A DNA stretch of 32,000 nt, from positions 2,670,799 through 2,702,798 of the forward strand of contig NZ_CP128399.1 in the NCBI RefSeq assembly GCF_030389965.1, in the 5' to 3' direction. Position 1 is the stretch's first letter, and the number at the start of each line of letters is the position of its first letter. The notes beneath the pieces were generated by a model that was not told the DNA's origin, searched no databases, and was given only the letters and a program-made list of their open reading frames with translations. The translations under genes were made by a program, and so were the position numbers. The stretch is from Candidatus Chlorohelix allophototropha (GTDB taxonomy: Bacteria > Chloroflexota > Chloroflexia > Chloroheliales > Chloroheliaceae). Below are positions 3,799 to 28,063 of this stretch, piece after piece.

Positions 3799-5934
3799 TT
3801 ATACTTCTGCTCCAAAAACCAGCTTTATCAATTTCTGATTGACTTTCTGTTTGAGCCGTTCCAGCCGAGAAGGATTAGTGACCACTTTCGCCTCATAGAA
3901 GGAAGGACATAACACGGCGGCGTGTGCTACTTCTCCACACAAACCGCAACCGACACATGTATTGCTGATAGTAGCGATAGGGTCAGCGCGCAAGGGGTTG
4001 GGATTATCCTTTATGGTCAGTGAAGGGCAGCCGTTCACGCGAATACAGCTATGGTCGCCGGTACAAACCGCGTCATCTATCCCAAAACGCGATTGCTCAA
4101 CCCGCTTGCCCTCATCCAACCGCTCTTTCTTTTCCACCTTTTCGTGGCGTTGTCGCTCTAGCATACATTCGCCCACCGAGCGAATGACCTTTAACTCCGA
4201 TTCTTCGCTGGAGAAAGCCTTGTCCAGCACTTTTACCACTTCGCCCACTTTGTAGGGGTTTACCTCCACCACATTTTTAACCCCTGCCGCATGCAACGCC
4301 ATTTCAATGTCCATTGCTTTAAACTTTTCGTGACGGGCATTTTCTTCGGTGCCGGGGTTTTCCTGCTGTCCGGTCATAGAAGTCCAGCCGTTTTCAAAAA
4401 TAACCATTGTGGCATCTTGACTGTTAAAAGTGGCGTTGGCAATGCTGGTGGTTAGCCCGCTGTGCCAGAAAGTGCCATCTCCCAGAAATCCGACTGTTTT
4501 CTGCTCGGTCATTCGCGCCATTGCTCCGGCGCTGGCAAGCCCTGTGCCCATTCCGGTACAGGTATCGGTCATTTCAAAAGGCGCGTACATACCCATAATG
4601 TAACAGCCGATGTCTCCGGCATAATGCGGTAAGCCGTGCTTCTTCTCGGTCAATTTGAGAGCAGAAAAGATGGGACGCTCTGGGCAGCCAGTACAAAAGT
4701 GGGGCAAGCGTAAAGGCAAGCTATCTTCAAATACATTCGCCGCATCATGCAAGTGCTGTGCCAGTTCCGCAGCAATACCGGAGAAATACGTAGCGCCACC
4801 TGGATACACTTCTTTAGAAAGCCATGCAGTTACACTATTCAAAAGAACTGTCGGGGAATATTCCCCCGCTTCGGGCAATACGCCTTTGCCGAATATCTGC
4901 AAGTCGTGCAAGCGATGGCTCTGGGCAATCGCCCTGATTTGAGTTTCAAGGCTATCCGGCATGCCCTCTTCTACTATCAATACCTTTTCTTTATCGCGCA
5001 AAAACTCCACGATTTCTTCGGGAACCAGCGGGTGTATCACATTCAGGTTATAGATTGGGAAATTGCACTGCCCGGTATTATCGGCTTCGCCCAAAACCGT
5101 AAGCGTCCGCAGCAAGGTGTTATAAAGCATGCCCTGTGTAATAAAACCGATGCGTTCATTTTTGCCGGGGAAAAAGTCGTTCAGCTTATTCTCGCGGATA
5201 TAGCGACGGGCGGCAGGCATGCGCTCTTCAAATTTGCGTCTTTCCTGCACCTGACTATAAGGAGGTAAGGGGATTTTGGTCAGTTTATCTTCCCAGCGGG
5301 TTGCCTTGTGGTTCATATTGAACTGCGGAGTGGCATTATCTTCACAAACCAGCGAACCTTTCATGTTTCCAGTGCGAGTGCGGAAAAGATACATTGCGAT
5401 TGTGCCGCTCACTTCGCTCAACTCGAAGCCCTTTTTCACCATATCTGCCATAAGCTGAGAATCGGCACGGGGATCAATACATAAAAGACCCGATTTGTGA
5501 GCATAGGGTAAGGTCTTTTCGGCAACGCTAGTGCTGTTCAAACCATAATCTTCGCCTACGAACACCATTGCGCCCCCGATTAAGCCGGGTTGCGAAATAT
5601 GCGCCAGCGCGTCTGCACCTACGTTGTTGCCGACCACCTTCCAGTTTACGGCACCGCGCACGGGGTTATTGACCGAAGCCTGCAATAAAGCTGCTGCCGC
5701 TGCCTCATTTATCGAGCCTTCAACGTATACGCCGAGAGGTTTTAGAAATTCCTGATAACTGTCTGAAATTGCATCATAGAGGGAAGAGGTGGGCGCACCG
5801 GGGTAACCGCCGAGGTAACTAACACCGCTTTCAAGTAGCGCCTTTAGCACCACCACTGCCATGTCGCCCTTAAGCACCTGCCCCTTTCCGAAATTGAGTT
5901 GACGGAGGGTTTCAGTGGAAAAATTTCTGCCCAT
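3799..5934 (-). CDS. iorA: Indolepyruvate:ferredoxin oxidoreductase alpha subunit (TPP- and 4Fe-4S-binding)
   Basis: TPP-binding signature 'FLGDGTFWHSG...FENGWTSMTGQQ' and 'GDIGCY'. C-terminal Cys clusters 'CTGDHSCIRVNGCP' and 'CVGCGLCGEVAHAAVLCP'. AAGGAG SD ~8 nt upstream of ATG 5934. Confidence 0.85.
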   Translation of the reverse strand: MGRNFSTETLRQLNFGKGQVLKGDMAVVVLKALLESGVSYLGGYPGAPTSSLYDAISDSYQEFLKPLGVYVEGSINEAAAAALLQASVNNPVRGAVNWKVVGNNVGADALAHISQPGLIGGAMVFVGEDYGLNSTSVAEKTLPYAHKSGLLCIDPRADSQLMADMVKKGFELSEVSGTIAMYLFRTRTGNMKGSLVCEDNATPQFNMNHKATRWEDKLTKIPLPPYSQVQERRKFEERMPAARRYIRENKLNDFFPGKNERIGFITQGMLYNTLLRTLTVLGEADNTGQCNFPIYNLNVIHPLVPEEIVEFLRDKEKVLIVEEGMPDSLETQIRAIAQSHRLHDLQIFGKGVLPEAGEYSPTVLLNSVTAWLSKEVYPGGATYFSGIAAELAQHLHDAANVFEDSLPLRLPHFCTGCPERPIFSALKLTEKKHGLPHYAGDIGCYIMGMYAPFEMTDTCTGMGTGLASAGAMARMTEQKTVGFLGDGTFWHSGLTTSIANATFNSQDATMVIFENGWTSMTGQQENPGTEENARHEKFKAMDIEMALHAAGVKNVVEVNPYKVGEVVKVLDKAFSSEESELKVIRSVGECMLERQRHEKVEKKERLDEGKRVEQSRFGIDDAVCTGDHSCIRVNGCPSLTIKDNPNPLRADPIATISNTCVGCGLCGEVAHAAVLCPSFYEAKVVTNPSRLERLKQKVNQKLIKLVFGAEV

Positions 5935-6016
5935 TTACACTACTCCTTGATTCTCTCAAGACCACCTTGTCATGAGATTGGGCGATAAACTTGTTAAGTA
6001 AATCTCCAGAAAATGT

Positions 6017-6036
6017 TGTATTATATGAATAATACA
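6017..6036. promoter_or_regulatory. Perfect 8-4-8 palindrome, candidate operator in the iorA / Lrp-type regulator divergent intergenic region
   Basis: TGTATTAT-atga-ATAATACA, read directly at 6017..6036, in the AT-rich 240-bp gap between divergent genes. Confidence 0.4.
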
Positions 6037-6174
6037 TTAATGCTTGTATGTCAAGCAACTTTCCGACAATCTGACAAGTGTTATAGATAAATTCTATGCA
6101 AAGCGTCGCCACTTGAGCCTATTTTGTTGCATAGTTAATAAGCGAATAGTAGCGTTAGAAGTTTTGTAGGGGGA

Positions 6175-6821: not shown

Positions 6822-7301
6822 TCAATCTTTAAGAGTCTGCAATAACCGGGCAGCCTCTTCCCTGATTCCAGAGTCAATGTGGGTTCGAGCCATCTTTAGC
6901 GGCGCAATGGCGCGCCTATCTCCCATACGCCCCAATGCAATAGCTGCATCGTAATAAGCCCCATCTGCCGGGTCATGCAAGACCGCCAGAAGTGCGGATG
7001 AAGCATGCACATCCGCAATCTGCCCCAACGCCCACACCACAACCCGGCGTGGAGCAGTATCATGCTTATCCACGCTAGTCAGCAATTTCACCAGATAACT
7101 TACTGCCAGCGGGTCACCAATCTGACCGAGCGCCGCCGCCGCAGTAAAGCGCACATTCGGTACACTATCTTTCAGCAACTCGATGAGATACGAAACGGCG
7201 CGCTCATCCCGCATCCGTCCAAGGGCAGAGGCGGCTTGTCGGCGCTTTTCAGGGTCATAGTCGTGCAAAGAACTTATAAGAGTGTCAAATTGATCGTTCA
7301 T
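6822..7301 (-). CDS. HEAT-repeat (PBS-lyase HEAT-like) protein
   Basis: Repeated 'AA.ALG.(I/M)GD..A(V/I)..L..LL.D....VR' units, e.g. 'RRQAASALGRMRDERAVSYLIELLKDSVPNVRFTAAAALGQIGDPLAVSYLVKLL'. Confidence 0.75.
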   Translation of the reverse strand: MNDQFDTLISSLHDYDPEKRRQAASALGRMRDERAVSYLIELLKDSVPNVRFTAAAALGQIGDPLAVSYLVKLLTSVDKHDTAPRRVVVWALGQIADVHASSALLAVLHDPADGAYYDAAIALGRMGDRRAIAPLKMARTHIDSGIREEAARLLQTLKD

Positions 7302-7409
7302 AGGATAGCTGCCAGTATTAGAAACCTTGTAGTGTTTTTAAAGTTAGGTCAATTTTATAGCGATTCGAGGTTTTTATCAATCCTTTTAAAGGAAGAGGCT
7401 GAAGGAATT

Positions 7410-7898
7410 TCAGGGAAGGTGCTCTTGCTCGATTTCTACGCCCAGATAGCGGGTTTCTAGCGAGTCGGAGGAAATATCATCCCAAAAGCGATCTTTCAAA
7501 TAGGTGGGATAGACCGGGAGGTTTACTAATTCGTGGGCATGGAACCAACGGGTGTGCCTTTCCAATTGTTGCGGGTCGGTAACATCTGCAATAGTGGTGG
7601 CGCTCAGTTCACCCGTAAAGCGGCTGATTAGAAAAGCTAACTCAAGATGGTGGCGATGGCGGCTTGGTTCAATAAATTCTCTGAAATATAAAAGCCGACC
7701 TTCGGTTTCTACTTCAAGCCCTGTTTCTTCTCGAAATTCTCGGCGCAACGCCTCAAAAACCGATTTGTCCTGTGATTCTTGCCCACCGCCCGGTAATGTC
7801 CAGAATTCTTCGTGGCTATCGGGAGTATGCTCGTGTACCAGCAAAAGCCTGTTCGCCGCATCAAGCATGACTCCGGCTACTCTGATACGATAATTCAA
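7410..7898 (-). CDS. NUDIX hydrolase
   Basis: Nudix box 'GGGQESQDKSVFEALRREFREETGLE' (GX5EX7REUXEEXGU). The TTG start overlaps the upstream gene's TGA stop (TTGA, 7895-7898). Confidence 0.8.
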   Translation of the reverse strand: MNYRIRVAGVMLDAANRLLLVHEHTPDSHEEFWTLPGGGQESQDKSVFEALRREFREETGLEVETEGRLLYFREFIEPSRHRHHLELAFLISRFTGELSATTIADVTDPQQLERHTRWFHAHELVNLPVYPTYLKDRFWDDISSDSLETRYLGVEIEQEHLP

Positions 7899-13195: not shown

Positions 13196-14539
13196 ATGAA
13201 TAGAATGTATTTCAACGCCGAAATAGAAACTATGCCCCGCGATGAGTTGCGGAAATTGCAACTGGAACGCCTTAAACAAACGCTTGGCTATGCTTATACA
13301 AAAGTGGCTTTCCATCAGCACCAGTTTCAACAAGCCAATGTTACGCCTGATTCGTTGCATACGCTGGAAGATTTGAACAAATTCCCCTTCATAACCAAAC
13401 CACAATTGCGAGAAAATTACCCGTTCGGGCTGTTCGCGGTCAAGCCCAACGATAAGGATAAAATAGTGCGTCTGCACGCTTCCAGCGGCACAAAAGGCAA
13501 ACCGACAGTAGTGGGTTACACCGCCCACGATATAGAAGTATGGGCGGAGAGTTGCGCCCGCGCAATCGCCTGCGCGGGAGGCAAACCCGGTGATGTGTTG
13601 CATGTGGCATATGGCTACGGGCTTTTCACGGGCGGGTTAGGCTTGCACTACGGAGGCGAGAAACTCGGCGCGTGTGTGATACCCGCATCTGGAGGCAATA
13701 CGCCACGTCAGATATTATTGATGCAAGATTTTCAAGCGCAAGGGCTGTGCTGTACCCCTAGTTATGCCTTGAATCTGGCAGAATATCTCAAAGAGCATAA
13801 TATCCCGTTGGAAAGTCTGAATCTCAAGTACGGTATTTTGGGTGCAGAACCCTGGACTGAGGAAATTCGGGTCAAGGTTGAGGAGGGCTTGGGCTTGATT
13901 GCGCTGGACATCTACGGGTTGAGCGAAATCACCGGACCGGGCGTATCAATGGAATGTCCGTACAAACAGGGCTTGCATATCTGGGAAGATTATTACCTAC
14001 CGGAAATAATAAACCCTGCTACCCTCGAACCCTTACCGGACGGTGAAATCGGCGAACTGGTCTTTACTACGCTGGCAAAAGAAGCCATCCCTATGATTCG
14101 TTACCGCACCGGCGACTTGTGTAACCTAACCTACGAAAAATGCGATTGCGGACGCACGCATGCCCGCATGGGCAAAATCAAAGGGCGCATAGATGACATG
14201 CTGATTGTGCGTGGCATCAATGTTTTCCCTTCCGAGATTGAGCGCGTGCTACTGGAATTTGAGGAACTCGCGCCACATTATCAGATTGTGCTGGAGCGCC
14301 CGGAAGTGCTGGATGTTGTGACGGTTCATTGCGAATCCACCACCGCCTTTACAGTGAGTGTCTTCGGAGATGCCGAGCATGACGAGGAACATCATCTTTT
14401 GAGCAGTTTGCGTCAACATATTATGTTGAAACTGAGAGAGGGTCTGGGAGTCAGTTTGCAGGTGAAAATCAACCCACCTCACACCATTCCCCGCAGCGAA
14501 GGCAAAGCGGTGCGCGTAGTGGATAATCGACCAAAATAA
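13196..14539 (+). CDS. paaK: Phenylacetate-CoA ligase
   Basis: N-terminus 'MYFNAEIETMPRDELRKLQLERLKQTL' is typical of PaaK. AMP-binding motifs 'SSGTKGKPT', 'YGLSE' and 'YRTGD' are present. The start may be ATG 13205 (MYFN...) rather than 13196. Confidence 0.9.
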   Translation: MNRMYFNAEIETMPRDELRKLQLERLKQTLGYAYTKVAFHQHQFQQANVTPDSLHTLEDLNKFPFITKPQLRENYPFGLFAVKPNDKDKIVRLHASSGTKGKPTVVGYTAHDIEVWAESCARAIACAGGKPGDVLHVAYGYGLFTGGLGLHYGGEKLGACVIPASGGNTPRQILLMQDFQAQGLCCTPSYALNLAEYLKEHNIPLESLNLKYGILGAEPWTEEIRVKVEEGLGLIALDIYGLSEITGPGVSMECPYKQGLHIWEDYYLPEIINPATLEPLPDGEIGELVFTTLAKEAIPMIRYRTGDLCNLTYEKCDCGRTHARMGKIKGRIDDMLIVRGINVFPSEIERVLLEFEELAPHYQIVLERPEVLDVVTVHCESTTAFTVSVFGDAEHDEEHHLLSSLRQHIMLKLREGLGVSLQVKINPPHTIPRSEGKAVRVVDNRPK

Positions 14540-14571
14540 AATTCTTATAGCTAATAATCGTGAGGAAAAAC

Positions 14572-14880
14572 ATGGTTGTTATGGTAGCGCTGTACAAAGA
14601 ACCCGCCAACCGGGCAGAATTTGATAAATATTATTGGGAAACACATTTGCTGCTTGCCGGAAAAATCCCCGGCTTGTTAAAAAGTGAAGTATGCACCTTT
14701 TACGAACTAGAGGGCGGGGGTGAGCTTCCCTATTACCTAATGACCAAACTTTATTTTAACAGCAAGGAAGAAATGGCAGCCGCTTTCGCCACCCCTGAAG
14801 GACGCGCTACCGCCAAAGACCTGCGGAATTTCACCACACCGAGCAGTGTCACCATCACTTACGCCGAAGTTAAAGAATAA
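14572..14880 (+). CDS. EthD-family (TIGR02118-like) small protein
   Basis: 'MVVMVALYKEPANRAEFDKYYWETHLLLAGKIPGL' fits the EthD-domain N-terminal pattern. ATG 14572 follows a GAGGAAAAAC SD. The upstream GTG 14560 in the track lies within the SD. Confidence 0.6.
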   Translation: MVVMVALYKEPANRAEFDKYYWETHLLLAGKIPGLLKSEVCTFYELEGGGELPYYLMTKLYFNSKEEMAAAFATPEGRATAKDLRNFTTPSSVTITYAEVKE

Positions 14881-14896
14881 GAAAGGGTATGGATAA

Positions 14897-15673
14897 ATGG
14901 GCTTTGAGAATATTATCTATGCGAAAGTGGGAGTAGGTATCGCTAAGGTAACGCTGAATCGCCCCGAAGCGATTAACGCTTACACGCTGCTGATGCTAGG
15001 CGAGATGGCAGAGGCGTTTGCACAAGCCAAAGCCGATTCTGAAGTTCGCACCGTTATTCTGACCGGGGCAGGGCGTGGTTTCTGCGCAGGGGCTGACCTA
15101 CGCACCACCAGCACAATGGATTTTGAGAACGCACTACGTACCTATTATCGCCCTATGATTGAAGGCATTACCGGAATGGGTAAACCTGTAATCGCAATGG
15201 TAAACGGAGTAGCAGCGGGCGCGGGTATGTCCACCACTCTCGCTTGTGATTTCCGGGTAGCAGCTACTAACACACGCTTTGTAACCGCCTTCTCTAAAAT
15301 AGGGTTAGTGCCAGACGCGGGTATGTCATACCATCTACCGCGCCTTATCGGAATTGCCCGCGCTCAGGAAATGATTTCTCTGAACCGGGATGTGAGCGGG
15401 GAAGAAGCGGTATCAATAGGCTTAGCAACCAAAGTAGTAGCCCCTGAAGAACTTGAAAAAGCTACGCTGGAAATGGCGCACTCGCTGGCTAATACCACTA
15501 CGCTGGCTTTTGGCATAACTCGCCAGATGTTGCATAGCGCCTTGCAGATGACTCTGGATGAAGCGTTGGCACAGGAAGAAAAGAATCAGGCAATTGCCGG
15601 AGCGAGCGAAGATTTCAAAGAAGGGGTAGCCGCCTTTATGGAGAAACGCGCCCCAAATTTCAAAGGGAAGTAA
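14897..15673 (+). CDS. Enoyl-CoA hydratase/isomerase (crotonase family; PaaG/PaaF-like)
   Basis: Crotonase oxyanion-hole motifs 'ILTGAGRGFCAGADL' and 'IAMVNGVAAGAGMS'. Confidence 0.85.
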   Translation: MGFENIIYAKVGVGIAKVTLNRPEAINAYTLLMLGEMAEAFAQAKADSEVRTVILTGAGRGFCAGADLRTTSTMDFENALRTYYRPMIEGITGMGKPVIAMVNGVAAGAGMSTTLACDFRVAATNTRFVTAFSKIGLVPDAGMSYHLPRLIGIARAQEMISLNRDVSGEEAVSIGLATKVVAPEELEKATLEMAHSLANTTTLAFGITRQMLHSALQMTLDEALAQEEKNQAIAGASEDFKEGVAAFMEKRAPNFKGK

Positions 15674-15704
15674 TTTTTTGAAGTAGTTGTAAGGAGAAGT
15701 ACAA

Positions 15705-16523
15705 ATGGCAACCACTATTACTATGAGTGAAGCTGAGATTGAAGCGGCAATGCTGGCAAAAATCGAGAATGGCGAAAAGCTTGAGCCAAACGACCCGATG
15801 ACCGCCGAATACCGCGAGTTGCTGCTGAACCTGCTTACCATGCAAGCGGATAGCGAGCTTTCCGGCGGGTACGGCTATATCCCATGGATTAGCCAAGCGC
15901 CCACCATCGAGGAAAAATTGATTGTTGCCAATATTGTGCGGGACGAGATTTTGCATGGCAAACGCATGTATAAATTGCTGGAAGATTTGGGGGTAGAAGT
16001 CGATTCGCGTATCAGGGAAAACGATGAAGCTTTTCTGTATCGGCTGGACGATAACAGCGCCAACATCGGGACACAACGCGCCAAAACCGATAAGCGGGTT
16101 AACATCTTCTACTACCCGATTGAAACTTGGACTGATTTTATAATGTTCAATTTCTGCATGGATCGCGGAGCGGGTCACCAATTGCATGATGCGCTACATT
16201 GCAGCTACGCACCATGGGCGCGGGTCACCGAACAAATCTTCAAGGAAGAGGTAACACATGTGGCGCATGGCGAGAAGTGGGTAAAGAAATTGGCACAAGA
16301 CCCCGCAACCCGCGAGGAATGTCAGCAAACCTTTAACAAATGGTATCTGCGCACGATGAACATATTCGGGCGCGGTAACAGCCCCAAAAACGCGCTGTAT
16401 CGCAAATATCGCCTCAAGTTGCGCGATAACGATGAAGTGCGCGATACTTTTCATCGGGAAGTGGTTGAATTGGTTACAAAGTGGGGGCTGACCGTACCGG
16501 AATGGAAACCGGAGAATATATAA
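15705..16523 (+). CDS. PaaA/PaaC-family ferritin-like di-iron protein (phenylacetyl-CoA epoxidase subunit A-like)
   Basis: 'LLTMQADSELSG', 'RDEILHGKRMYKLLEDLG' and 'FKEEVTHVAHGEKW' give E..H di-iron ligand pairs in a PaaA-like context. AAGGAG SD 8 nt upstream. Confidence 0.7.
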   Translation: MATTITMSEAEIEAAMLAKIENGEKLEPNDPMTAEYRELLLNLLTMQADSELSGGYGYIPWISQAPTIEEKLIVANIVRDEILHGKRMYKLLEDLGVEVDSRIRENDEAFLYRLDDNSANIGTQRAKTDKRVNIFYYPIETWTDFIMFNFCMDRGAGHQLHDALHCSYAPWARVTEQIFKEEVTHVAHGEKWVKKLAQDPATREECQQTFNKWYLRTMNIFGRGNSPKNALYRKYRLKLRDNDEVRDTFHREVVELVTKWGLTVPEWKPENI

Positions 16524-16566
16524 CGAGCGTTATATATTCAGCCGAGAAAAATAAGGGAAATAGGCG

Positions 16567-17766
16567 ATGGAAGAAGCGGTAATTGTCTCGGCAGTGCGCA
16601 CCCCTATTGGGCGGTATGGAGGCGCATTGGCAACAGTGCGCCCGGATAATTTGGGCGCAATCGTTATTGCCGAAGCAATCAGGCGCACAGGTATAGAAGC
16701 AAGCATGGTTGAAGATGTAATCTTCGGCTGTGCCAATCAGTCGGGCGAAGATAACCGCAACGTGGCACGTATGAGCCTTTTGCTGGCAGGCTTGCCCATT
16801 GAAACGGCGGGTGTAACGGTGAATCGTTTGTGCGGTAGCGGACTGCAAGCGGTAAACGATGCGGCACGTGCCATCAAAGTGGGCGAGGGCGAGGTACTAA
16901 TAGCTGGCGGAGTAGAGAGTATGACCCGCGCTCCTTTTGTAATGGCAAAACCCACCGAGGCATGGCAGCGGGGCAACCCAACTTTGCATGATACTACGCT
17001 CGGTTGGCGTTTCATCAATCCGCGCCTTTCCGAGATGTACTACCCTTACAACATGGGCGAAACCGCCGAAAACGTGGTGGACAAGTATAAAATCAGTCGA
17101 GAAGATCAGGATTTGTTCGCCTACAATTCGCAGAAGCGCGCCACCAATGCTATCGGTGAGGGAAAGTTCAAAGCAGAGATTGTTCCGGTGAAAGTGCCCC
17201 AACGCAAAGGCGAACCGTTTCTGTTTGATACGGACGAACACCCCCGCGCCGATACTACTTTGGAAGCTCTTGCAAAACTCAAACCCGCTTTCCGCAAGGA
17301 TGGAACTGTAACCGCCGGAAATAGTAGCGGCATCAATGATGGGGCTGCTGCGCTGGTGCTGATGTCCGGCAGCAAAGCAGCACAATTGGGTTTGAAACCT
17401 TTGGCGCGGATAGTGACATCAGCGGTGGCAGGGGTTGACCCGGCTACTATGGGGCTTGGACCTATTCCTGCCAGTCGCAAGGCGTTGCAACGCGCCGGGC
17501 TTACGGTAGCTGACTTAGATTTAATTGAGATTAACGAAGCCTTTGCTAGCCAAAGCCTCGCATGTATGCGCGAACTAGGACTCGACCCCGAAAAGGTGAA
17601 CGTGAACGGCGGCGCAATCGCGCTAGGGCACCCGCTTGGTTGTAGCGGGGCGCGCATGCTTACTACTCTTTTATACGAGATGGAACGGCGCGGCTCAAGA
17701 TATGGGCTGGCGACTATGTGCATCGGGGTAGGGCAGGGCATCGCAACTATCATAGAACGACTATAA
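16567..17766 (+). CDS. Acetyl-CoA C-acyltransferase / 3-oxoadipyl-CoA-type thiolase (PaaJ/FadA-like)
   Basis: Thiolase active-site motifs '[12 protein letters not shown]' (Cys nucleophile), 'NEAFASQ' and '[20 protein letters not shown]'. Confidence 0.9.
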
Positions 17767-19840: not shown

Positions 19841-22795
19841 CTAGGATTTCCCGGTCTTTACACAAGTCATTACGTCTCGCCCAGCGTTGGCTACTATCTC
19901 TCTACCAGTAAAGTGGTGGACATAGAGACCAAATAAGGTGACCCCGTTCAATTTCAAACCATCTAACTGCATTGAACCGGGTAATAAAACGCCATTACCA
20001 TCTAGCTCCACACCGGGACCAGTTGAGCAACTACCAACAATAGTTGTGCCTTGATTGACGGTGGCGAAAGCAGCAGTAGGACTTGTTATAGTAACCTTGG
20101 TTACACTAAAGGTTATTATTTTATTGGTAGCGCTACCATTAGCTTGTGCAATTGCCCAAGATAATGTATTGGCGGTATTACCAGTACCGTCGTCAGTTCC
20201 TACACTCACAACCCACGGCGTAGCGCCCGGTGTGGTAAGTACACCCGCTTGTGGAGAAGGATCTGAAGCTCCATCGGATGTTGGCGCTGAAGCACGTACA
20301 AGGCTTGAATTAATTGCTTTTACCCGATATAGGTACAATTTACCAGCAGTTAGCCCGGTATCGCTGAACGTGGTAGTGGTTGGGCGACTGGCAGGGTTGC
20401 TAACTTCCGCCCAGCCTGAACTTACACCTACTTGCATACGCTCTACCACATAACTACTAGGAGAACCAGAGGGAGCAGTCCAATTCACCGTTAGAGTGGT
20501 GCCAGTAACACTTGTAAAGTTAACCGCTGTGGGCGGTGCAAAGGCAGTAGTAGCAGCGACAGACCCCGATGCGGTGCCGTTGCCAGACGAAAAACCTTGT
20601 ATCTGAATATTGTAGTTTGTGTTAGCGGCAAGACCGGTTGCTAAAAAACTGTCGGTCGCACCCGTGCCGGCAAGAGGCCCTACGCTAAAGGTAAGAACCG
20701 GAGAAGCGCCGATTTGGAAGATGATTCTATAACCGTCTTCAAAAGTTGAGTTATCAGTCCACTGAACCAATTCTTGACTGCTACCACGAGAAGCGGCAAT
20801 CACATTATTCGGGGCGGTAGGCGCTATTTCTGAGTACACAATATTGGAGTAATCAGAATAGATAGTGCCTTCCGTTGAGCTAGGAGCGGTTTCATAAGCC
20901 TTTACGCGGTAAAGGAAACAACACCCACCAGCCAAAGCGCTATCAGGATAACTGGTAACGTCACTTTGAGAAGGTCCTATTTGTGAAAAAACAGGGGGAG
21001 ACGTTAAAGTGCTACGCTCAACAATGTATCCTGTATTATGTGTTGAATTATCAGTCCAACCCACAGTAATAGAACTCGCAGTGGAAGTGACAGGTTGTAG
21101 ATTGGAAGGCGCATTCAGCACTGTAAATTGATGGGCAGAAGAAGAGACTAGATCACCTGCAGGCGCTCCCAACGCCGTCACCTGATATTCGTAGCCTGTA
21201 CCTTCTGATAAGCTCGTGTCATCAAAGCTGGTTTTTGTGTTGCCAGTAAAGGGACTGCCGGTTACCGATGTCCAAGTACCACCTGCCGGGTAAGGGCGAC
21301 GTTCAACTTTAATGCTTGTCGCGTTAGGCGAATTATTTTGCCAAGACAGAGTCAGAGAAGAATTTGTTACATTAGAGAAAGTCAGGTTCGAGGGTGCAGC
21401 ATCAAAATAGCCACCGCCTGCACCCGTTACTCTTGAAATGTAAAAACGGAAGCCCCCGGAGGTGGTTACTTTCTTACCTGCAATTGTCAGTTGATTATTG
21501 TACCAACCAATGCTGGCTCTATCAATATTGGTACTGGAATCGGCAACACTGCTGTTAACATCGCCGGGACCAAAGGTAACGCCACTATCGCTGGTATACA
21601 GGTAAAAAACCCCGCGAACGTTTACCTGGAAAGCAACATAGACTGAGCCGTCGCCCGTACTCACTGCCGAATAATATTTTATGAGATTATCGTAGTTATT
21701 GGGGTTAACAACATTAAGCGTGCCAGTTACGCAGCTTCTAGTCGGATTATTGATGGGGTTAACAGTATTCCCGGCAGAACCACTCCAGCCGGTTGTTTTG
21801 TCATATTTAATCATGCTGACACAGGTTTTCCCGGCAAAAACAAAGGCGTTGCCCTTGTTATCCACCCCAATACCGGGCCAAGGGGATAAACTTTCGAGGT
21901 TATAAGAATAAATTGGTCCCCATGCTCCACCTATCCGCGCGATTGTTTTGTGACAAGGGAACTTAGTGCCAGTGCTGGTAACCGAATAATCTTCTCCGCA
22001 ACGGTATGCTAAAAACAGGTTACCGTCCTTATCAGCCACCATATTAGGATATCTGAAGAAGGTAGTATCGGTTGGTGAAACCCCAACGCCGGAATTGCCA
22101 TTATTGATGGGGTCATTACCCCAGTTTGGGCTAAGAGCGCTGGTCTCGGTTACATCTATCCGCCAAGTATCACCATAATTTTTTCCGGTTTTGGCGCTAT
22201 AAGCTAGATATAGCTTATCAGGAGCATTCGGATATAAACTGGTGGTAAGTGATACATATTCGCAAATTAAGGCACCACATACATTGTTCATTATTTGTAT
22301 GCGTGAGGAAGGAGCCTCTACATAACTAGAGCCGTTCCAATTATATTTAACATAGTACAGCCTGTTTGATCTGCTATAGACAATGTGAAGGTCGCCACGG
22401 CGATCAAAAGCCCCGCTAAAGTTAGGGTAACTAACTCCACCATTAGGCCATGAGTTTACTTCGACATAACTGCTATAGTTATCATGGCTGGAAAAAAAGA
22501 AAACCCCACCCGTTGCACTAAAACTTATGGGGTTACTGTTAGGATTATCAGAACTGAAAAAGCCCAATACTACAGTATGCCCGGTTACAGGATTAATAAG
22601 AGTCTGTGGAAAATCCAGCGTTGCCATAAGCCCATTGGTAGGGACTTGTGGCTGAGGAGTCCAAGTTACGGCAGCATGGGTCTGGTTTGATGTGCTAAAA
22701 AAAGTGAGAAAACCGAGGAAGGCTATTAGCAAAAAGGCTATACCGCCGATTAAAAGAGTTCGGCGGCTCAAACGAGGCGATTCGGTTCTAACCAT
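19841..22795 (-). CDS. Large secreted/cell-surface protein: signal anchor, N-terminal beta-propeller-like region, four fibronectin type III domains, short C-terminal beta-helix-like segment
   Basis: N-terminal TM/signal 'RRTLLIGGIAFLLIAFLGFLTFF'. Four FN3 units begin 'APSNLTFSNVTNSSLTLSW', 'APSNLQPVTSTASSITVGW', 'APNNVIAASRGSSQELVQW' and 'PPTAVNFTSVTGTTLTVNW', each ending in a 'Y.Y.V.A'-type strand. AGAGGAGAG SD upstream of ATG 22795. Confidence 0.8.
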   Translation of the reverse strand: MVRTESPRLSRRTLLIGGIAFLLIAFLGFLTFFSTSNQTHAAVTWTPQPQVPTNGLMATLDFPQTLINPVTGHTVVLGFFSSDNPNSNPISFSATGGVFFFSSHDNYSSYVEVNSWPNGGVSYPNFSGAFDRRGDLHIVYSRSNRLYYVKYNWNGSSYVEAPSSRIQIMNNVCGALICEYVSLTTSLYPNAPDKLYLAYSAKTGKNYGDTWRIDVTETSALSPNWGNDPINNGNSGVGVSPTDTTFFRYPNMVADKDGNLFLAYRCGEDYSVTSTGTKFPCHKTIARIGGAWGPIYSYNLESLSPWPGIGVDNKGNAFVFAGKTCVSMIKYDKTTGWSGSAGNTVNPINNPTRSCVTGTLNVVNPNNYDNLIKYYSAVSTGDGSVYVAFQVNVRGVFYLYTSDSGVTFGPGDVNSSVADSSTNIDRASIGWYNNQLTIAGKKVTTSGGFRFYISRVTGAGGGYFDAAPSNLTFSNVTNSSLTLSWQNNSPNATSIKVERRPYPAGGTWTSVTGSPFTGNTKTSFDDTSLSEGTGYEYQVTALGAPAGDLVSSSAHQFTVLNAPSNLQPVTSTASSITVGWTDNSTHNTGYIVERSTLTSPPVFSQIGPSQSDVTSYPDSALAGGCCFLYRVKAYETAPSSTEGTIYSDYSNIVYSEIAPTAPNNVIAASRGSSQELVQWTDNSTFEDGYRIIFQIGASPVLTFSVGPLAGTGATDSFLATGLAANTNYNIQIQGFSSGNGTASGSVAATTAFAPPTAVNFTSVTGTTLTVNWTAPSGSPSSYVVERMQVGVSSGWAEVSNPASRPTTTTFSDTGLTAGKLYLYRVKAINSSLVRASAPTSDGASDPSPQAGVLTTPGATPWVVSVGTDDGTGNTANTLSWAIAQANGSATNKIITFSVTKVTITSPTAAFATVNQGTTIVGSCSTGPGVELDGNGVLLPGSMQLDGLKLNGVTLFGLYVHHFTGREIVANAGRDVMTCVKTGKS

Positions 22796-23147: not shown

Positions 23148-23177
23148 TTGTCAGCCGGGCAAGCAAACGCTTATAAT
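23148..23177 (+). promoter_or_regulatory. Sigma70-like promoter for the Mg2+ transport locus
   Basis: TTGTCA (23148-23153), an 18-nt spacer, then TATAAT (23172-23177), ~70 nt upstream of ATG 23251. Confidence 0.5.
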
Positions 23178-23250
23178 ATAATTAACCAGCCTACTATCCA
23201 GTGAAACTACTCAAATCTCATTCTCAGCACATAAGCTCGAGGAAATCCAG

Positions 23251-24567
23251 ATGAATTTAATGTTCTTCAGTTTGCTGGTTGGCAAATCTATACTTGACAG
23301 AAATGGAGAGAAGATTGCCAGCCTTAAAGATTTGATTGTGCGTATAAATCCAATCGTTGGTAAAAGCGAAGAGAAATACCCACCTCTCGCCGGAATATTG
23401 GCGCACTCCAATAGCCGAGAATTCTGGATTCCGGCTTCACAGGTGCAAGAATTTGAGCAAGGTAAAATCAGACTGCATGATGCGAAGGTGAGCCTTGAGC
23501 GATTTGAACGCCGAGATGGCGAAATTCTACTGTACAAGGATGTACTGGATAAACAGTTAGTAGATGTTGAGGGGCGGAGGGTCATTCGGGTAAATGATTT
23601 GGCATTGGGCAATGCTCCCAACGAATTAACGCCCCGTTTGGTAGGAGTAGATATTTCTTTTCAAGCGTTGGTACGGCGCATTTTACCGTTTGGCGGAACC
23701 CCCAGAGTAAGTCGCTTGAGCCGAAATGAAAACCTGCTCGACTGGGCAGATGTAGAGTATTTTGCGAGCAGCGCGCCAAGCGTGCGTCTCAATGTTTCTC
23801 ATGCGCGCTTGGCAAAAATGCATCCGGTGGATATAGCGCGGTTGCTGGACGAGCTTTCCTACGTGCAGGGCGCAGAAATTGTGAACGCCCTTGATGATGA
23901 AACTGCCGCCGATGCGCTTGAAGAGATGAACCCGGATTATGCTGCCGATATTCTGGAAGGTTTGAGCGAAGACCGCGCCGCTGATATTCTGGAAGAGATG
24001 CAGCCGGACGATGCTGCGGATGTTATTGCCGATTTGGACGAAAATAAAGCACAGGCATTATTGGAATTGATGGAAGAAGAAGAATCAGAAGAAGTGCGGG
24101 AACTGTTGGCTTATGATGAGGATGCCGCCGGTGGTATCATGACCAACGATTTCCTGATGTTACCTGATAATCTTGGTGCTTCCGAAGCGCTCCAAACCAT
24201 TCGTGAACTTGAAACCCAACCCGAATTTGTAGATTATATTTATGTGGTTGAACCGGATAGTGAAAAACTGGTGGGTGTAGCAGCGCTTCGGGATGTTGTT
24301 TTCTGCCAACCGCGCACTACCTTACTTTCCGAATTGATTGTACGTAATTATATAAGCATGAAAACCGATTCAAAAGCAGAGGATGCAGCGGCAGTGTTAG
24401 CAGATTACGGCTTTCGTGCCTTACCAGTGCTTAATGAGGAAGGCGAAATCAAAGGTATTATCACGTTTGATGATGCGCTTGATCTAATCTTACCTGAAGA
24501 TTTGCGACGACGACTGCCGAATATTTTTAAGAACCATCGGGGTATGGTAAGTTTCGTCAAAAAATAA
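23251..24567 (+). CDS. Soluble PRC-barrel + MgtE N-domain + CBS-pair protein (the MgtE cytosolic sensor module without the MgtE membrane domain)
   Basis: N-terminal 'LLVGKSILDRNGEKIASLKDLIV' is PRC-barrel-like. 'HPVDIARLLDEL...AADALEEMNPDYAADILEGLSEDRAADILEEMQPDDAADVIADLDENKAQALLELMEEEESEEVRELLAYDEDAAGGIMT' is the MgtE_N signature leading into the CBS pair ('YIYVVEPDSEKLVGVAALRDV', 'LPVLNEEGEIKGIITFDDAL'). The ORF ends after the CBS pair with no TM segments. Confidence 0.8.
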   Translation: MNLMFFSLLVGKSILDRNGEKIASLKDLIVRINPIVGKSEEKYPPLAGILAHSNSREFWIPASQVQEFEQGKIRLHDAKVSLERFERRDGEILLYKDVLDKQLVDVEGRRVIRVNDLALGNAPNELTPRLVGVDISFQALVRRILPFGGTPRVSRLSRNENLLDWADVEYFASSAPSVRLNVSHARLAKMHPVDIARLLDELSYVQGAEIVNALDDETAADALEEMNPDYAADILEGLSEDRAADILEEMQPDDAADVIADLDENKAQALLELMEEEESEEVRELLAYDEDAAGGIMTNDFLMLPDNLGASEALQTIRELETQPEFVDYIYVVEPDSEKLVGVAALRDVVFCQPRTTLLSELIVRNYISMKTDSKAEDAAAVLADYGFRALPVLNEEGEIKGIITFDDALDLILPEDLRRRLPNIFKNHRGMVSFVKK

Positions 24568-24579
24568 AAGAAGGGTTTC

Positions 24580-25944
24580 GTGGCAAAAGAAAATCAGGAC
24601 AAGGTAGGGAATGTAATTACAACCCCCAATGAAACACCCGAGAAGAATGAGCCGCGTCCGGTAAGAAAAGGGCGGTTTTTCTTTTTTCTTGGTATGCTCG
24701 GTCCGGGATTAATTGCGGCAAACGCCGGGAATGATGCCGGAGGAATTGCTACCTATAGCCAAATGGGGGCGCAATACGGTTACAACCTCTTATGGGTGAT
24801 GATTGTCATTACCTTCTCACTGGCAGTAGTGCAAGAAATGTGCGCCCGCTTGGGGGCAGCAACCGGTAAGGGCTTAAGTGCGCTGATTCGCGAAAACTTC
24901 AGCATTCGCTGGACTACTTTCCTCATGTTGGCGCTCCTGATTGCCAATGCCGGAACAACAATTTCAGACTTTATCGGTATCGCCGCCGCGATGGGCATCT
25001 TCGGTGTGCCTGCGTGGATTAGCGCGCCGGTTGCCGGGTTAACGCTGTGGTTCTTCATTGCACGCGGTTCTTATGGTAGAGCCGAAAAAATCTTCCTGTT
25101 TATGACCTTTGCCTTTTTTGCTTATGTATTCGCCGCAATTGTAGGGCATCCTAATTGGGGCGAAGTTGCTACCCACGCCCTTACCCCAACCATAAAAAGT
25201 GATAGCGCTTATATTCAGACCATTATGGCGGCAATAGGTACAACCATTACCCCCTATATGCAATTGTTTTTGCAAAGCGCGGTGGTGGAAAAAGGGGTGA
25301 CGATGCGAGATTATGGCTACCAGAGATTGGAAGTTTATCTAGGGTCTATCTTCTCAAATACAATCTCCGCCTTTATTATAATTGCTTGCGGCGCCACTAT
25401 TTTTATGAGCAGCCCGATTATAAACGGTGAGCATCAGGGCGTGGAAATAAATACCGCCAGTGATGCAGCCAAAGCGCTTGAGCCGCTTTTGGGTAGCTAT
25501 GCTACGCAGGTGTTCGCGTTAGGTTTATTGGGCGCATCGCTACTTGCCAGTGGCGTGTTACCGCTGGCTACTTCTTATTCGATTTGTGAAGCATTCGGTT
25601 TCGAGAACGGCATTTCCTTCAAATGGAAGGAAGCGCCCGTCTTTTGGAGTATTTTTACCTTCCTGATAGTCGCCGGGGTGGGTGTCACTATTATCCCCGG
25701 AGTTTTGAATTATACCGTAGCGATATTGCTCATAATCCAGATTGTCAACGGTATGATTTTACCCTTAATACTGGTAGCTATTTTGTTGCTCATCAACAAA
25801 AAATCCTTAATGGGTAAATATATCAATGGTAAAATTTACAACATAATAGCGTGGACAACCGCTGTAGGCGTGGGAATTCTTTCAATTATACTCCTGACCG
25901 TGACTGTTTTTGGACTCTTCAATGTAAACATATTGCCTTCATAG
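24580..25944 (+). CDS. Nramp/SLC11-family transporter with a non-canonical metal site (NRMT-like, putative Mg2+ transporter)
   Basis: Nramp TM1 context 'LGPGLIAANAGNDAGGIATYSQMGAQYGYNLLW' has DAGG (24733..24744) in place of canonical DPGN. TM6 'AIGTTITPYMQLFLQS' (TTITPY at 25240..25257) replaces canonical 'G(A)T(V)MPHN', so the Met and His are lost. GTG start lies 12 nt after the upstream stop. Confidence 0.75.
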   Translation: MAKENQDKVGNVITTPNETPEKNEPRPVRKGRFFFFLGMLGPGLIAANAGNDAGGIATYSQMGAQYGYNLLWVMIVITFSLAVVQEMCARLGAATGKGLSALIRENFSIRWTTFLMLALLIANAGTTISDFIGIAAAMGIFGVPAWISAPVAGLTLWFFIARGSYGRAEKIFLFMTFAFFAYVFAAIVGHPNWGEVATHALTPTIKSDSAYIQTIMAAIGTTITPYMQLFLQSAVVEKGVTMRDYGYQRLEVYLGSIFSNTISAFIIIACGATIFMSSPIINGEHQGVEINTASDAAKALEPLLGSYATQVFALGLLGASLLASGVLPLATSYSICEAFGFENGISFKWKEAPVFWSIFTFLIVAGVGVTIIPGVLNYTVAILLIIQIVNGMILPLILVAILLLINKKSLMGKYINGKIYNIIAWTTAVGVGILSIILLTVTVFGLFNVNILPS

Positions 25945-26026
25945 CAAGGTATAATCAAAAATGGGTATTCCCCCCTTTTTCAGCGGTTTCTAATAACTTT
26001 ACCCTCAATCTAATGGAGTAAAGCGT

Positions 26027-27004
26027 GTGATAAAAGCCTTAGTAGCGGATACGCAGACTCATAACTCCCGCAATTTTCAAGATTTGGATAAGATTAGCGA
26101 CTTGTTGAGCGACTCTGCTAATTTTTTCTGGCTCGACCTCTCTTCCCCCTCGGAGGAAGAGTTAAATATGGTGGCAAAGGAATTCAACTTCCACCATTTA
26201 GCCATGGAAGATGTCACTCATCGTCTCCAACGCCCCAAGATTGAAGAATACGAAAACTATTTTCTGGGAATCTTTTACTCTATCAGTTTGAAGGATGAAT
26301 TTAAGGAACTAGTTTTCCATGAATTAGCCTTTTTTATCGGGGCAAATTATTTGGTAACTATACATTATGAGCCAATTCCTGAATTGGCAGAAGCAGAGGC
26401 GCGCTGGAAACGTAACAATGTGCAGACAGTCAAAATGATAGGACCAGTTGTCTATGCCATGCTTGATACGTTGGTAGATAACTATTTTCCGATTATGGAT
26501 AAAATGGTGGATTATGCCGAAGAGTTAGAGGATGATATTTTTCAAGGCAATGGCATGCACACCAAAGTAACCGGCAAACTGTTAGAGCTTAAAAAGTTGT
26601 TTTTGCAAATGCGCCGGATAATAGCGCCTGAACGTGATATTCTCAATGTGCTGACCAATCGCGATAACCGGATTTTTGGCGACGATGCCCTGTTTTACTT
26701 CCGGGATGTTTATGACCACCTAACGCGGGTCACCGATACCCTTGACCTATACCGCGACCAGATTGGTAGCACTATGGAAGCAAATCTATCGGTTGCGTCA
26801 AACGATCTCAATAGCGTGATGCGTACTCTTACTGCTTTTTCCATTATCCTTATGACCGATGCCCTGATAAGCGGGATATATGGGATGAATTTTGAGAATA
26901 TACCCGAACTCAAATGGAGTTTCGGCTACTATGGCGCGTTATCTTTAATGGTGGGCATCACCGTAGGGCTTGTATTTTATTTCAAAAGAAAGAAATGGCT
27001 TTGA
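26027..27004 (+). CDS. corA: CorA-family magnesium/cobalt transporter
   Basis: Signature 'YGMNFENIPE' (GMN at 26882..26890) between two C-terminal TM helices. GGAG SD 8 nt upstream of GTG 26027. Confidence 0.85.
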   Translation: MIKALVADTQTHNSRNFQDLDKISDLLSDSANFFWLDLSSPSEEELNMVAKEFNFHHLAMEDVTHRLQRPKIEEYENYFLGIFYSISLKDEFKELVFHELAFFIGANYLVTIHYEPIPELAEAEARWKRNNVQTVKMIGPVVYAMLDTLVDNYFPIMDKMVDYAEELEDDIFQGNGMHTKVTGKLLELKKLFLQMRRIIAPERDILNVLTNRDNRIFGDDALFYFRDVYDHLTRVTDTLDLYRDQIGSTMEANLSVASNDLNSVMRTLTAFSIILMTDALISGIYGMNFENIPELKWSFGYYGALSLMVGITVGLVFYFKRKKWL

Positions 27005-27025: not shown

Positions 27026-27050
27026 AACAGGATGCACACCTGTTCTTTTT
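27026..27050 (+). terminator. Rho-independent terminator after corA
   Basis: Stem aacagg (27026-27031) / cctgtt (27039-27044), a 7-nt loop, then CTTTTT. Confidence 0.5.
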
Positions 27051-28063
27051 CATTTTTTGTTCCAAGCTTCAAGAACTTCTCGTTCTTTATCCAAAGAGAT
27101 TCCGGCGTAGCGCAGCACTTCCGACGGGCGCACCCTATCCCACTCAAAGGTAGCTCGAACAGTTTCCGCCAACGGGCGGATGGTCAAGCCTTTTGAAAGC
27201 GCTTTGGTGATATTTGTTGCGCCCAAAGCTCTGGACATTGGATCAGAGGCGGGAATCCAAAGCGGTAAACCCAACCATGGCATTATTTTCTCATCCAATA
27301 TAAATTGATCGTCCACCCAAGTTAAGTGAGCGTTACCGCCACAAACTCGATTAGATTCTTCGAGGAACACACCCATTGTCAGGGTATAATCTGGTCCGGT
27401 AAAGTTAAAGACCCCTGTTTCAAGCTTCTCCGCCAGACGCAGCGTACCCTCGGCTAAATCGCGCACATCAATAAACTGAACTGGACGCGCAGGTGAACCG
27501 GGAGCAAGCACTTCTCCACCTTGCGGCAGCCGATGTACCCAATAGGTGAAGCGATCGGAGGGGTCGTAGGGACCAACAATCAAGCCCGGTCGAATTATCA
27601 ACGCGCCGTCCGAAAACTGCGCCTGTACCTCTTTTTCGCAAAGGGCTTTTAGTGGACCGTAATTCTCCGGCGAAATCTCACGCGGGGAGGAGGTTTTTTC
27701 TACTTCCTCCTCAGAAATTGTAGCCAGTTCGTCTTCCTCAACCAAGCCAGTTTTACCTTGATCGGCATAAACCGAAATGGTAGAGATAAATACATAGAGT
27801 CGAGCGGAACCTGCAAGCAAACTTGCTGTTTGGCGAACCGCGCCCGGCAAATAGCCACAGGTATCAATTACTATATCAAAGCTACGCCCTGTTAGTGCGC
27901 TTAAATCTTGTTCGCGATCACCTAATAGCTTTTCGACTTGGGGAAACTGGTCAGGATTAGTGCGCCCCCGGTTAAAGGTGGTAACGTTATGCCCGGCTTT
28001 GAGAGCTGCTTCTATCAAAGGATATCCCAAAAAACGAGGACCACCGATCAATAGTAGCTTCAT
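27050..28063 (-). CDS. NAD(P)-dependent epimerase/dehydratase-family (extended SDR) protein
   Basis: N-terminal Rossmann motif 'MKLLLIGGPRFLGYPLIEAAL'. The size and overall layout are typical of extended SDRs. Confidence 0.7.
   Translation of the reverse strand: MKLLLIGGPRFLGYPLIEAALKAGHNVTTFNRGRTNPDQFPQVEKLLGDREQDLSALTGRSFDIVIDTCGYLPGAVRQTASLLAGSARLYVFISTISVYADQGKTGLVEEDELATISEEEVEKTSSPREISPENYGPLKALCEKEVQAQFSDGALIIRPGLIVGPYDPSDRFTYWVHRLPQGGEVLAPGSPARPVQFIDVRDLAEGTLRLAEKLETGVFNFTGPDYTLTMGVFLEESNRVCGGNAHLTWVDDQFILDEKIMPWLGLPLWIPASDPMSRALGATNITKALSKGLTIRPLAETVRATFEWDRVRPSEVLRYAGISLDKEREVLEAWNKK

Follow-up and report, generated by a model that had tools for sequence, protein, structure and literature searches.

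Organization of the locus

The 32,000-nucleotide (nt) stretch of Candidatus Chlorohelix allophototropha DNA analyzed here (contig NZ_CP128399.1, positions 2,670,799 to 2,702,798, hereafter the window) carries three consecutive open reading frames (ORFs) on one strand. They encode a soluble protein resembling the cytosolic part of the Mg2+ channel MgtE (the partner, ORF1), a transporter of the Nramp-related Mg2+ transporter (NRMT) clade (ORF2) and a CorA channel (ORF3). These gene identities are close to certain. The genes are separated by gaps of 12 nt (partner/NRMT) and 82 nt (NRMT/CorA) and, judging from this spacing, are probably co-transcribed as a single-transcript Mg2+-acquisition operon. 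An initial annotation of the window had placed the same three ORFs, with their motifs and gaps, within 23251-27004, in agreement with the coordinates and the profile matches obtained here. The genes and the signals around them are as follows.

23148..23177, +, sigma-70-type promoter-like site: TTGTCA, 18 nt spacer, TATAAT (11 of 12 consensus positions)
23178..23250, +, leader of about 70 nt, with GAGGAA 6 nt before the ATG of the partner gene
23251..24567, +, soluble MgtE-like partner, 438 amino acids (aa), from Pfam, PDB alignment and an AlphaFold2 model
24580..25944, +, NRMT-clade Nramp, 454 aa (Pfam Nramp, PF01566, E 3e-87; GTG start with GAAGG upstream)
26027..27004, +, CorA Mg2+/Co2+ channel, 325 aa (TIGR00383, 255.9 bits against a cut-off of 200.75; Pfam CorA E 3e-66)
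27026..27054, +, terminator-like hairpin (27026-27044) and T-run, between CorA and a convergent epimerase gene

Both the NRMT and the CorA gene start with GTG and are preceded by a Shine-Dalgarno sequence, and no terminator-like site was found in either gap. The initial annotation had put all three genes behind one promoter and ahead of one terminator. The promoter-like block is also kept in the sister assembly (L087), where the sequence further upstream has diverged; the terminator-like hairpin is modest (6 bp, -13.3 kcal/mol, z = -1.86). Rfam searches of the leader gave no M-box or other riboswitch, either at the gathering threshold or at E<=10, and the leader, in which an acidic ORF was sought, contains no ORF of at least 20 aa. 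We also considered a tiny membrane-protein gene within the operon and rejected it: the two gaps leave no space for one, and the alignment of the NRMT with EleNRMT, the homolog from Eggerthella lenta, runs as far as the last C-terminal residues of the latter.

The partner is an MgtE-like cytosolic module

Among solved structures, the partner is most similar to the cytosolic domains of MgtE (E 2e-35 for 2yvy). The protein contains no hydrophobic segment and, by Pfam, no MgtE transmembrane (TM) domain, so it is not an MgtE channel (no match to PF01769); it does carry the MgtE_N domain and CBS pair and stops before any TM segment, as had been noticed from the letters alone. The AlphaFold2 model has a mean predicted local distance difference test (pLDDT) score of 79.8, and superposition of its MgtE_N and CBS half with 2yvy, the cytosolic domain of MgtE in its Mg2+-bound form, gives a TM-score of 0.86 and a root-mean-square deviation of 1.8 A. 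The fold search was run with the whole model, and its matches were dominated by MgtE and CBS proteins. The protein can be divided as follows.

23251..23505, +, PRC-barrel-like beta domain, residues 1-85 (beta-rich in the model, pLDDT 73-91)
23506..23805, +, further beta-rich stretch with linker, residues 86-185 (conserved among partners; no Pfam match)
23818..24123, +, MgtE_N, residues 190-291 (Pfam E 2e-28; carries D221, D253, D257)
24136..24498, +, CBS pair, residues 296-416 (Pfam E 5e-17, two CBS domains; carries D408, D411, G387)
24499..24564, +, short basic C-terminal tail at the place of the MgtE plug helix (R419, R420; disordered in the model)

The PRC-barrel assigned to ORF1 in the initial annotation needs to be qualified. 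In the window protein the Pfam match is weak, covering residues 1-31 only at 20.7-21.0 bits, below the cut-off of 21.2, whereas 27 of 34 homologs match PF05239 at E<=0.01 (best E 1.6e-12). On these profile scores the label appears marginal for the window partner and sound for its family. Residues 86-185 contain motifs that are conserved across 177 partners (RR.GE.LL..DVLDKQL.DV.GRRV.RVNDL and DWADV.YFA). A second PRC barrel in this region, suggested by motif likeness by eye, was dismissed for want of Pfam support. The tails of the same 177 partners have a median length of 13 aa and the consensus LLPxxxRxRxPxxF, and are net positive in 93% of cases.

We then compared the partner with the cytosolic Mg2+ sites of Thermus thermophilus MgtE, using the published site list (Maruyama et al., 2018, PMC5882242) with the residue offset checked on E59, D91, D95, I28 and I84, and computed the conservation of each position across the 177 partners.

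Mg7: MgtE E59, window D221; Asp or Glu in 98% of partners
Mg4: MgtE D91, window D253; Asp in 90%
Mg6: MgtE D95, window D257; Asp in 98%
Mg5: MgtE D226, window G387; Asp in only 7%
Mg4: MgtE D247, window D408; Asp in 99%
Mg5: MgtE D250, window D411; Asp or Glu in 90%
Mg2: MgtE E258, window R419; Arg in 81%
Mg3: MgtE D259, window R420; variable

Five of the eight ligand positions are therefore acidic in the window partner (D221, D253, D257, D408 and D411). The alignment indicates that the sites at which the N domain and the CBS pair clamp together are retained and that the short basic tail has taken the place of those linking plug helix and pore.

No other gene of the neighborhood is as well conserved as that of the partner, which is under stronger constraint than the genes around it. 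Measured against one and the same relative, it is 80% identical, compared with 57% for the NRMT, 56% for CorA and 56% for the epimerase; a fibronectin-III (fn3) protein encoded nearby is fast-diverging, at 28% identity to its counterpart in that relative.

The transporter belongs to the NRMT clade

ORF2 matches the structure of EleNRMT (7qia) with an E value of 1.8e-111, compared with about 1e-25 for MntH structures (7e-26 for the best of them). The NRMT site signature is DxxG-TxxA/T, as given by Ramanadane et al. (2022, PMC8806188), and both halves are present.

24733..24744, +, TM1 motif DAGG, residues 52-55 (D52, G55), agreeing with DxxG
25237..25257, +, TM6 motif GTTITPY, residues 220-226 (T221, T224, Y226), agreeing with TxxA/T

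By alignment, the equivalents of EleNRMT D55, G58, T224 and Q379 are D52, G55, T221 and Q387, the last being a conserved Gln on helix 10. In TM1, Gly stands in for the Asn of other Nramps, and in TM6 Thr stands in for Ala. The position of the canonical Met is occupied by T224 (Ala in EleNRMT) and that of the TM6 His by Y226 (Trp in EleNRMT). The two replacement motifs that the initial annotation had read in this Nramp-fold protein, DAGG in TM1 and T..TPY in TM6, thus lie at residues 52-55 and 220-226, and its reading of the protein as NRMT-like from the loss of the Met and the Asn is confirmed by the 7qia match and the signature. The evidence places ORF2 in the NRMT clade of the SLC11 (Nramp) family. 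EleNRMT carries Mg2+ as well as Mn2+, is not proton-coupled and requires T224 for Mg2+ transport (Ramanadane et al., 2022, PMC8806188). The transport that characterizes the clade is independent of protons and takes Mg2+ and Mn2+ but not Ca2+. ORF2 is probably a proton-uncoupled importer of hydrated Mg2+ that would also accept Mn2+.

The further suggestion of a distinct subclade marked by Thr in place of the Met did not hold. Thr is already part of the published signature, and of the 120 closest homologs 107 have TTISPY in TM6, the other 13 having TTITPY. In a tree of 87 NRMT sequences, Thr, Ser and Ala switch many times at this position, and the TTITPY group of the window (Shimodaira-Hasegawa-like approximate likelihood ratio test, SH-aLRT, 100) branches from within a clade of Chloroflexota (SH-aLRT 99) that otherwise has TTISPY. 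Because the three residues alternate in this way, Thr is not a marker of a deep subclade.

The partner and the NRMT are linked across phyla

We surveyed 80 loci from named genomes, selected for their likeness to the NRMT of the window. Its relatives are for this reason over-represented, and about 40 of the loci come from Pyrinomonadaceae and other Acidobacteriota. Six loci had flanks too short to be informative. In 62 of the remaining 74 (84%) a partner gene lies within 2.5 kb of the NRMT gene, and in 56 of the 74 the order is partner then NRMT on one strand; the other 12 informative loci lack a partner despite at least 1.8 kb of flanking sequence on each side. The linked pairs fall under six phylum labels, namely Chloroflexota, Thermomicrobiota, Acidobacteriota, Actinomycetota, Bacillota and Myxococcota. 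The co-occurrence check proposed in the initial annotation has thus revealed conserved synteny. The N-terminal module, detected with our own N-terminal hidden Markov model, occurs together with MgtE_N and CBS domains in 60 of the 62 linked partners, which makes the PRC-like N-terminus of about 185 residues a standard feature of partners, rather than a peculiarity of this locus.

The genomes from the family of the window organism are related to one another and do not count as independent samples. In nine of 13 of them partner and NRMT genes are neighbors, in three they are on different contigs, and in the last there is only a remote partner-like protein. A search of 21 relatives found three without an NRMT, and none of these three has a partner. 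One Chloroflexia metagenome-assembled genome (MAG; G006, identical to G001) encodes a 73%-identical NRMT and two partner-type proteins of 442 and 451 aa in three unlinked places with unrelated neighbors (L003, L085, L086). Although frequent, linkage between partner and NRMT is thus not obligatory.

Identities between relatives are discordant: against one, the partner is 80% and the NRMT 57% identical, and against another the NRMT is 73% and the partner 63% identical. Replacement of the NRMT in situ was considered as an explanation and rejected, as all these NRMTs fall in one well-supported clade of Chloroflexota (SH-aLRT 99) and the divergence of CorA and of the epimerase resembles that of the NRMT. 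A slowly evolving partner combined with rearrangements seems the simpler reading of these values.

Riboswitch searches connect the family with Mg2+. M-boxes (108-153 bits) lie upstream of partner-NRMT operons in Clostridium muellerianum, Desulfosporosinus and a Bacillota MAG, and an M-box also precedes the lone NRMT gene of C. pascui. All four of these Bacillota transporters have TTITPY or TTITPW in TM6, and the M-boxes in front of them therefore tie the exact site type of the window to Mg2+. No M-box was found in the seven Chloroflexota, Acidobacteriota and Actinomycetota loci tested. Other riboswitches in the Clostridium loci are probably unrelated: fluoride riboswitches lie at 2564-2622 and 3341-3400 upstream of the M-box/NRMT locus of C. 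pascui (L047), and a T-box leader at 4876-5111 lies downstream of the NRMT gene of C. muellerianum (L071).

CorA is a local addition to the operon

As a protein, the CorA of the window is ordinary. It exceeds the TIGR00383 cut-off, its GMN motif is intact (residues 286-288, nt 26882-26890, +) and it has two C-terminal TM-like segments (267-286 and 298-317). Its position behind an NRMT gene is uncommon. The initial annotation correctly described a CorA with an intact GMN motif 82 nt downstream of the transporter, and to this we can add that the linkage is confined to few lineages: CorA adjoins NRMT in only two of the 80 loci surveyed, and it directly follows NRMT in the window genome, in a 98%-identical sister, in one related metagenomic contig and in two Actinomycetota loci (L061 and L076). 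In a genome of the same genus (G002), CorA is located elsewhere.

On the related metagenomic contig (130 kb; L089, L091) the NRMT and CorA genes are 7 nt apart, and the partner lies about 6 kb off, past two fn3 genes. Because the genes are differently arranged there, the tight operon of the window was evidently created by rearrangement, and gene order indicates that the operon took on its three-gene form recently and locally. On this contig, which comes from a related genus, the partner is 80% identical to that of the window and divergent from the two large fn3 genes, after which NRMT, CorA, GGT and epimerase genes follow. Directly beside the partner on the same contig is the Paa cluster that the window has at 13196-17766. 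In the window itself, a gene at 19841-22795 (- strand), divergent from the operon, encodes a 984-aa secreted protein with several fn3 repeats.

Other magnesium transport genes in the genome

The genome, which is 95% complete, gave no match to PF01769, the pore domain of MgtE. In the 12 other genomes of the family there was no MgtE-type match, in a search whose coverage was limited to MgtE_N and CBS. The genome encodes two CorA proteins and three non-canonical Nramp homologs (with DAGG, DAGG and DAGS in TM1), and a canonical MntH with DPGN and MPH motifs is absent among its Nramp homologs. This inventory suggests that the organism obtains its Mg2+ through CorA and the NRMTs with their partners, an MgtE channel playing no part.

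The second NRMT/partner pair lies on contig 2 (948000-960000), where the two genes, at 4376-6079 (-) and 6887-7690 (+), are divergent and separated by a gap of 807 nt. The second NRMT has 567 aa, the motifs DAGG and TTVAPW and a C-terminal extension. Its partner, of 267 aa, consists of the PRC-like module and MgtE_N and lacks the CBS pair, a form that at E<=1e-20 was found only in the window genome and its sister. The pair adjoins BchX/Y/Z-like genes. The third Nramp homolog, also on contig 2 (1998000-2006000, 3596-4927, +), has 443 aa, DAGS in TM1 and a retained Met in TM6 (AVIMPW), with no partner nearby. An 'outgroup' clade was reportedly set apart from NRMT and Slc11 by Cellier in 2022, and this third homolog may belong to it.

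A possible feedback mechanism and its alternatives

On the best-supported reading, to which we give an even chance, the partner would sense Mg2+ in the cytoplasm, close around the ion as the cytosolic domain of MgtE does, and in that state restrain the NRMT in trans. The soluble partner, probably a dimer like the cytosolic domain of MgtE, would clamp its MgtE_N and CBS domains round Mg2+ at the acidic interdomain sites equivalent to Mg4, Mg6 and Mg7. At high cytoplasmic Mg2+, the closed partner would dock on the NRMT through the PRC-like module and/or the basic tail and slow import; as Mg2+ falls, it would release the transporter. The outcome would be post-translational feedback in a lineage whose operon is M-box-less. 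In this scheme we infer that the two proteins interact physically, that the effect is inhibitory and that the ligand is Mg2+. A sensor role fits the conservation of synteny and of the Mg2+ ligands and the likeness to the MgtE fold; the context points to Mg2+ as well, with CorA in the operon, M-boxes on Bacillota relatives and no MgtE pore in the genome, and an uncoupled carrier would plausibly need gating. Gating in trans by the soluble sensor, as raised in the initial annotation, is thus a reasonable proposal that fits these observations, but it is not new, as the same role had been proposed by Shin et al. (2014).

Several observations weigh against it. The Mg5 ligand D226 is lost (G387) and the plug sites Mg2 and Mg3 are gone. 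The partner and NRMT genes are on different contigs in three family genomes (G006, G007 and G008) and about 6 kb apart on the related 130-kb contig. NRMTs function without a partner in Bacillus subtilis and in liposomes (PMC4072509, PMC8806188), and co-expression of the partner from A. capsulatum, whose NrmT behaved mainly as a Mn2+ transporter, left the rescue of a Mg2+-transport mutant unchanged (PMC4072509). In our view this negative result does not refute gating, because rescue was scored at low Mg2+, where an inhibitor would be expected to be off; the sole published negative thus used the wrong condition for spotting a feedback inhibitor.

In a first alternative, the transporter would be mainly a Mn2+ importer, and the partner would sense Mn2+ or have another metal-handling role, such as the chaperone function suggested by Shin et al. 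for A. capsulatum. The riboswitch-less A. capsulatum NrmT, which has a partner, favors Mn2+ (PMC4072509), EleNRMT also carries this ion (PMC8806188), the window genome has no canonical MntH, and no M-box was detected at the window or in the seven non-Bacillota loci. We nevertheless consider this explanation unlikely, as CorA shares the operon, Clostridium NRMTs encoded behind Mg2+ riboswitches have the identical GTTITPY site, the counterpart of EleNRMT T224 is still Thr, and an additional Mg2+ route is plausible in a genome with no MgtE channel. The adjacency of the two genes might instead reflect shared regulation only, with the partner as a free-standing sensor of Mg2+ and/or adenine nucleotides that acts on another target, either CorA or a general regulatory output. 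CBS pairs bind ATP, that of MgtE included (5x9g), the genes are unlinked in several genomes, the relative with the 130-kb contig keeps the partner alone beside fn3 genes and the NRMT together with CorA, and the published co-expression test was negative (PMC4072509). Yet the partner adjoins the NRMT in 84% of informative loci over six phyla, compared with two of 80 loci for CorA, its presence or absence matches that of the NRMT among the genomes of relatives, and the Bacillota M-box governs both genes jointly, all of which makes an independent target quite improbable. Finally, an MgtE cytosolic architecture without a TM domain would fit a decaying, functionless MgtE remnant that has lost its pore. 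The ORF is intact, however, and is the most conserved gene nearby (80% against 56-57%), the family-specific N-terminal module and tail are conserved over six phyla, and there are thousands of homologs; on this conservation, a remnant is effectively excluded.

Returning to feedback gating, it is tempting to speculate further that the partner is a genuine trans-acting gate, and that the NRMT and partner constitute a two-component Mg2+-feedback importer in which the PRC-like module and the Arg-rich tail, as docking elements, have replaced the covalent plug-helix link. In a lineage with neither an MgtE channel nor a riboswitch on this operon, the sensor would then be the main control of Mg2+ entry and might coordinate with CorA. 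We regard this extended proposal as tentative and rather doubtful. The PRC-like module and Arg-rich tail are absent from full-length MgtE, and we found no description of them in the literature searched. For the role of the MgtE-like NRMT partner, the present locus offers a sharper test, by way of the conserved interdomain ligands, the basic tail that replaces the plug sites and the near-universal, partner-specific PRC-like module.

Comparison with known systems

The NrmT clade was named by Shin et al. (2014, PMC4072509), who reported that most nrmT genes adjoin a stand-alone gene for an MgtE cytoplasmic domain and proposed feedback regulation. The suggestion in the initial annotation that such a sensor-transporter pairing might be undescribed is therefore incorrect. 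In the operons of that study (Ca_c0685 of C. acetobutylicum and Acp2976/Acp2977 of A. capsulatum) a partner of this kind lies immediately upstream of the NRMT, with the same proposed role. The A. capsulatum NrmT fully rescued a Mn2+-uptake mutant and needed millimolar Mg2+ to rescue a Mg2+-transport mutant, a rescue that co-expression of the pair did not change (PMC4072509). The A. capsulatum and window pairs both lack an M-box. Compared with these operons, that of the window adds CorA as a third gene and its genome adds the CBS-less second pair. Shin et al. describe the partner only by its homology to the cytoplasmic domain of MgtE, with no word on the PRC-like extension of about 185 residues that nearly all partners have. 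In the literature searched, no description joined a PRC-barrel with MgtE or Nramp, although PRC in partners does appear in database annotations, for example in JGI names.

EleNRMT of E. lenta (7QIA) aligns with the window transporter end to end; D55, G58, T224 and Q379 are kept, and the soft Met and the TM6 His are absent. The differences, Thr for Ala and Tyr for Trp, are both within the TxxA/T signature and the variation seen in our own tree. The N domain and CBS pair of T. thermophilus MgtE (2YVX/2YVY) are 34% identical to those of the partner, with the TM-score of 0.86 given above and shared Mg4, Mg6 and Mg7 ligands; in contrast to MgtE, the partner has no TM pore, has Arg in place of the plug acids of Mg2 and Mg3, has lost D226 and has gained the PRC-like module. 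What is new here is the locus survey, the conservation of the ligands together with the Arg at the plug position, the local linkage to CorA, the lack of an M-box at a locus whose Bacillota relatives with the same site have one, and, in a genome devoid of an MgtE channel, the second, CBS-less pair. Altogether, the operon is a further example of the published sensor-transporter arrangement, with CorA as a local addition.

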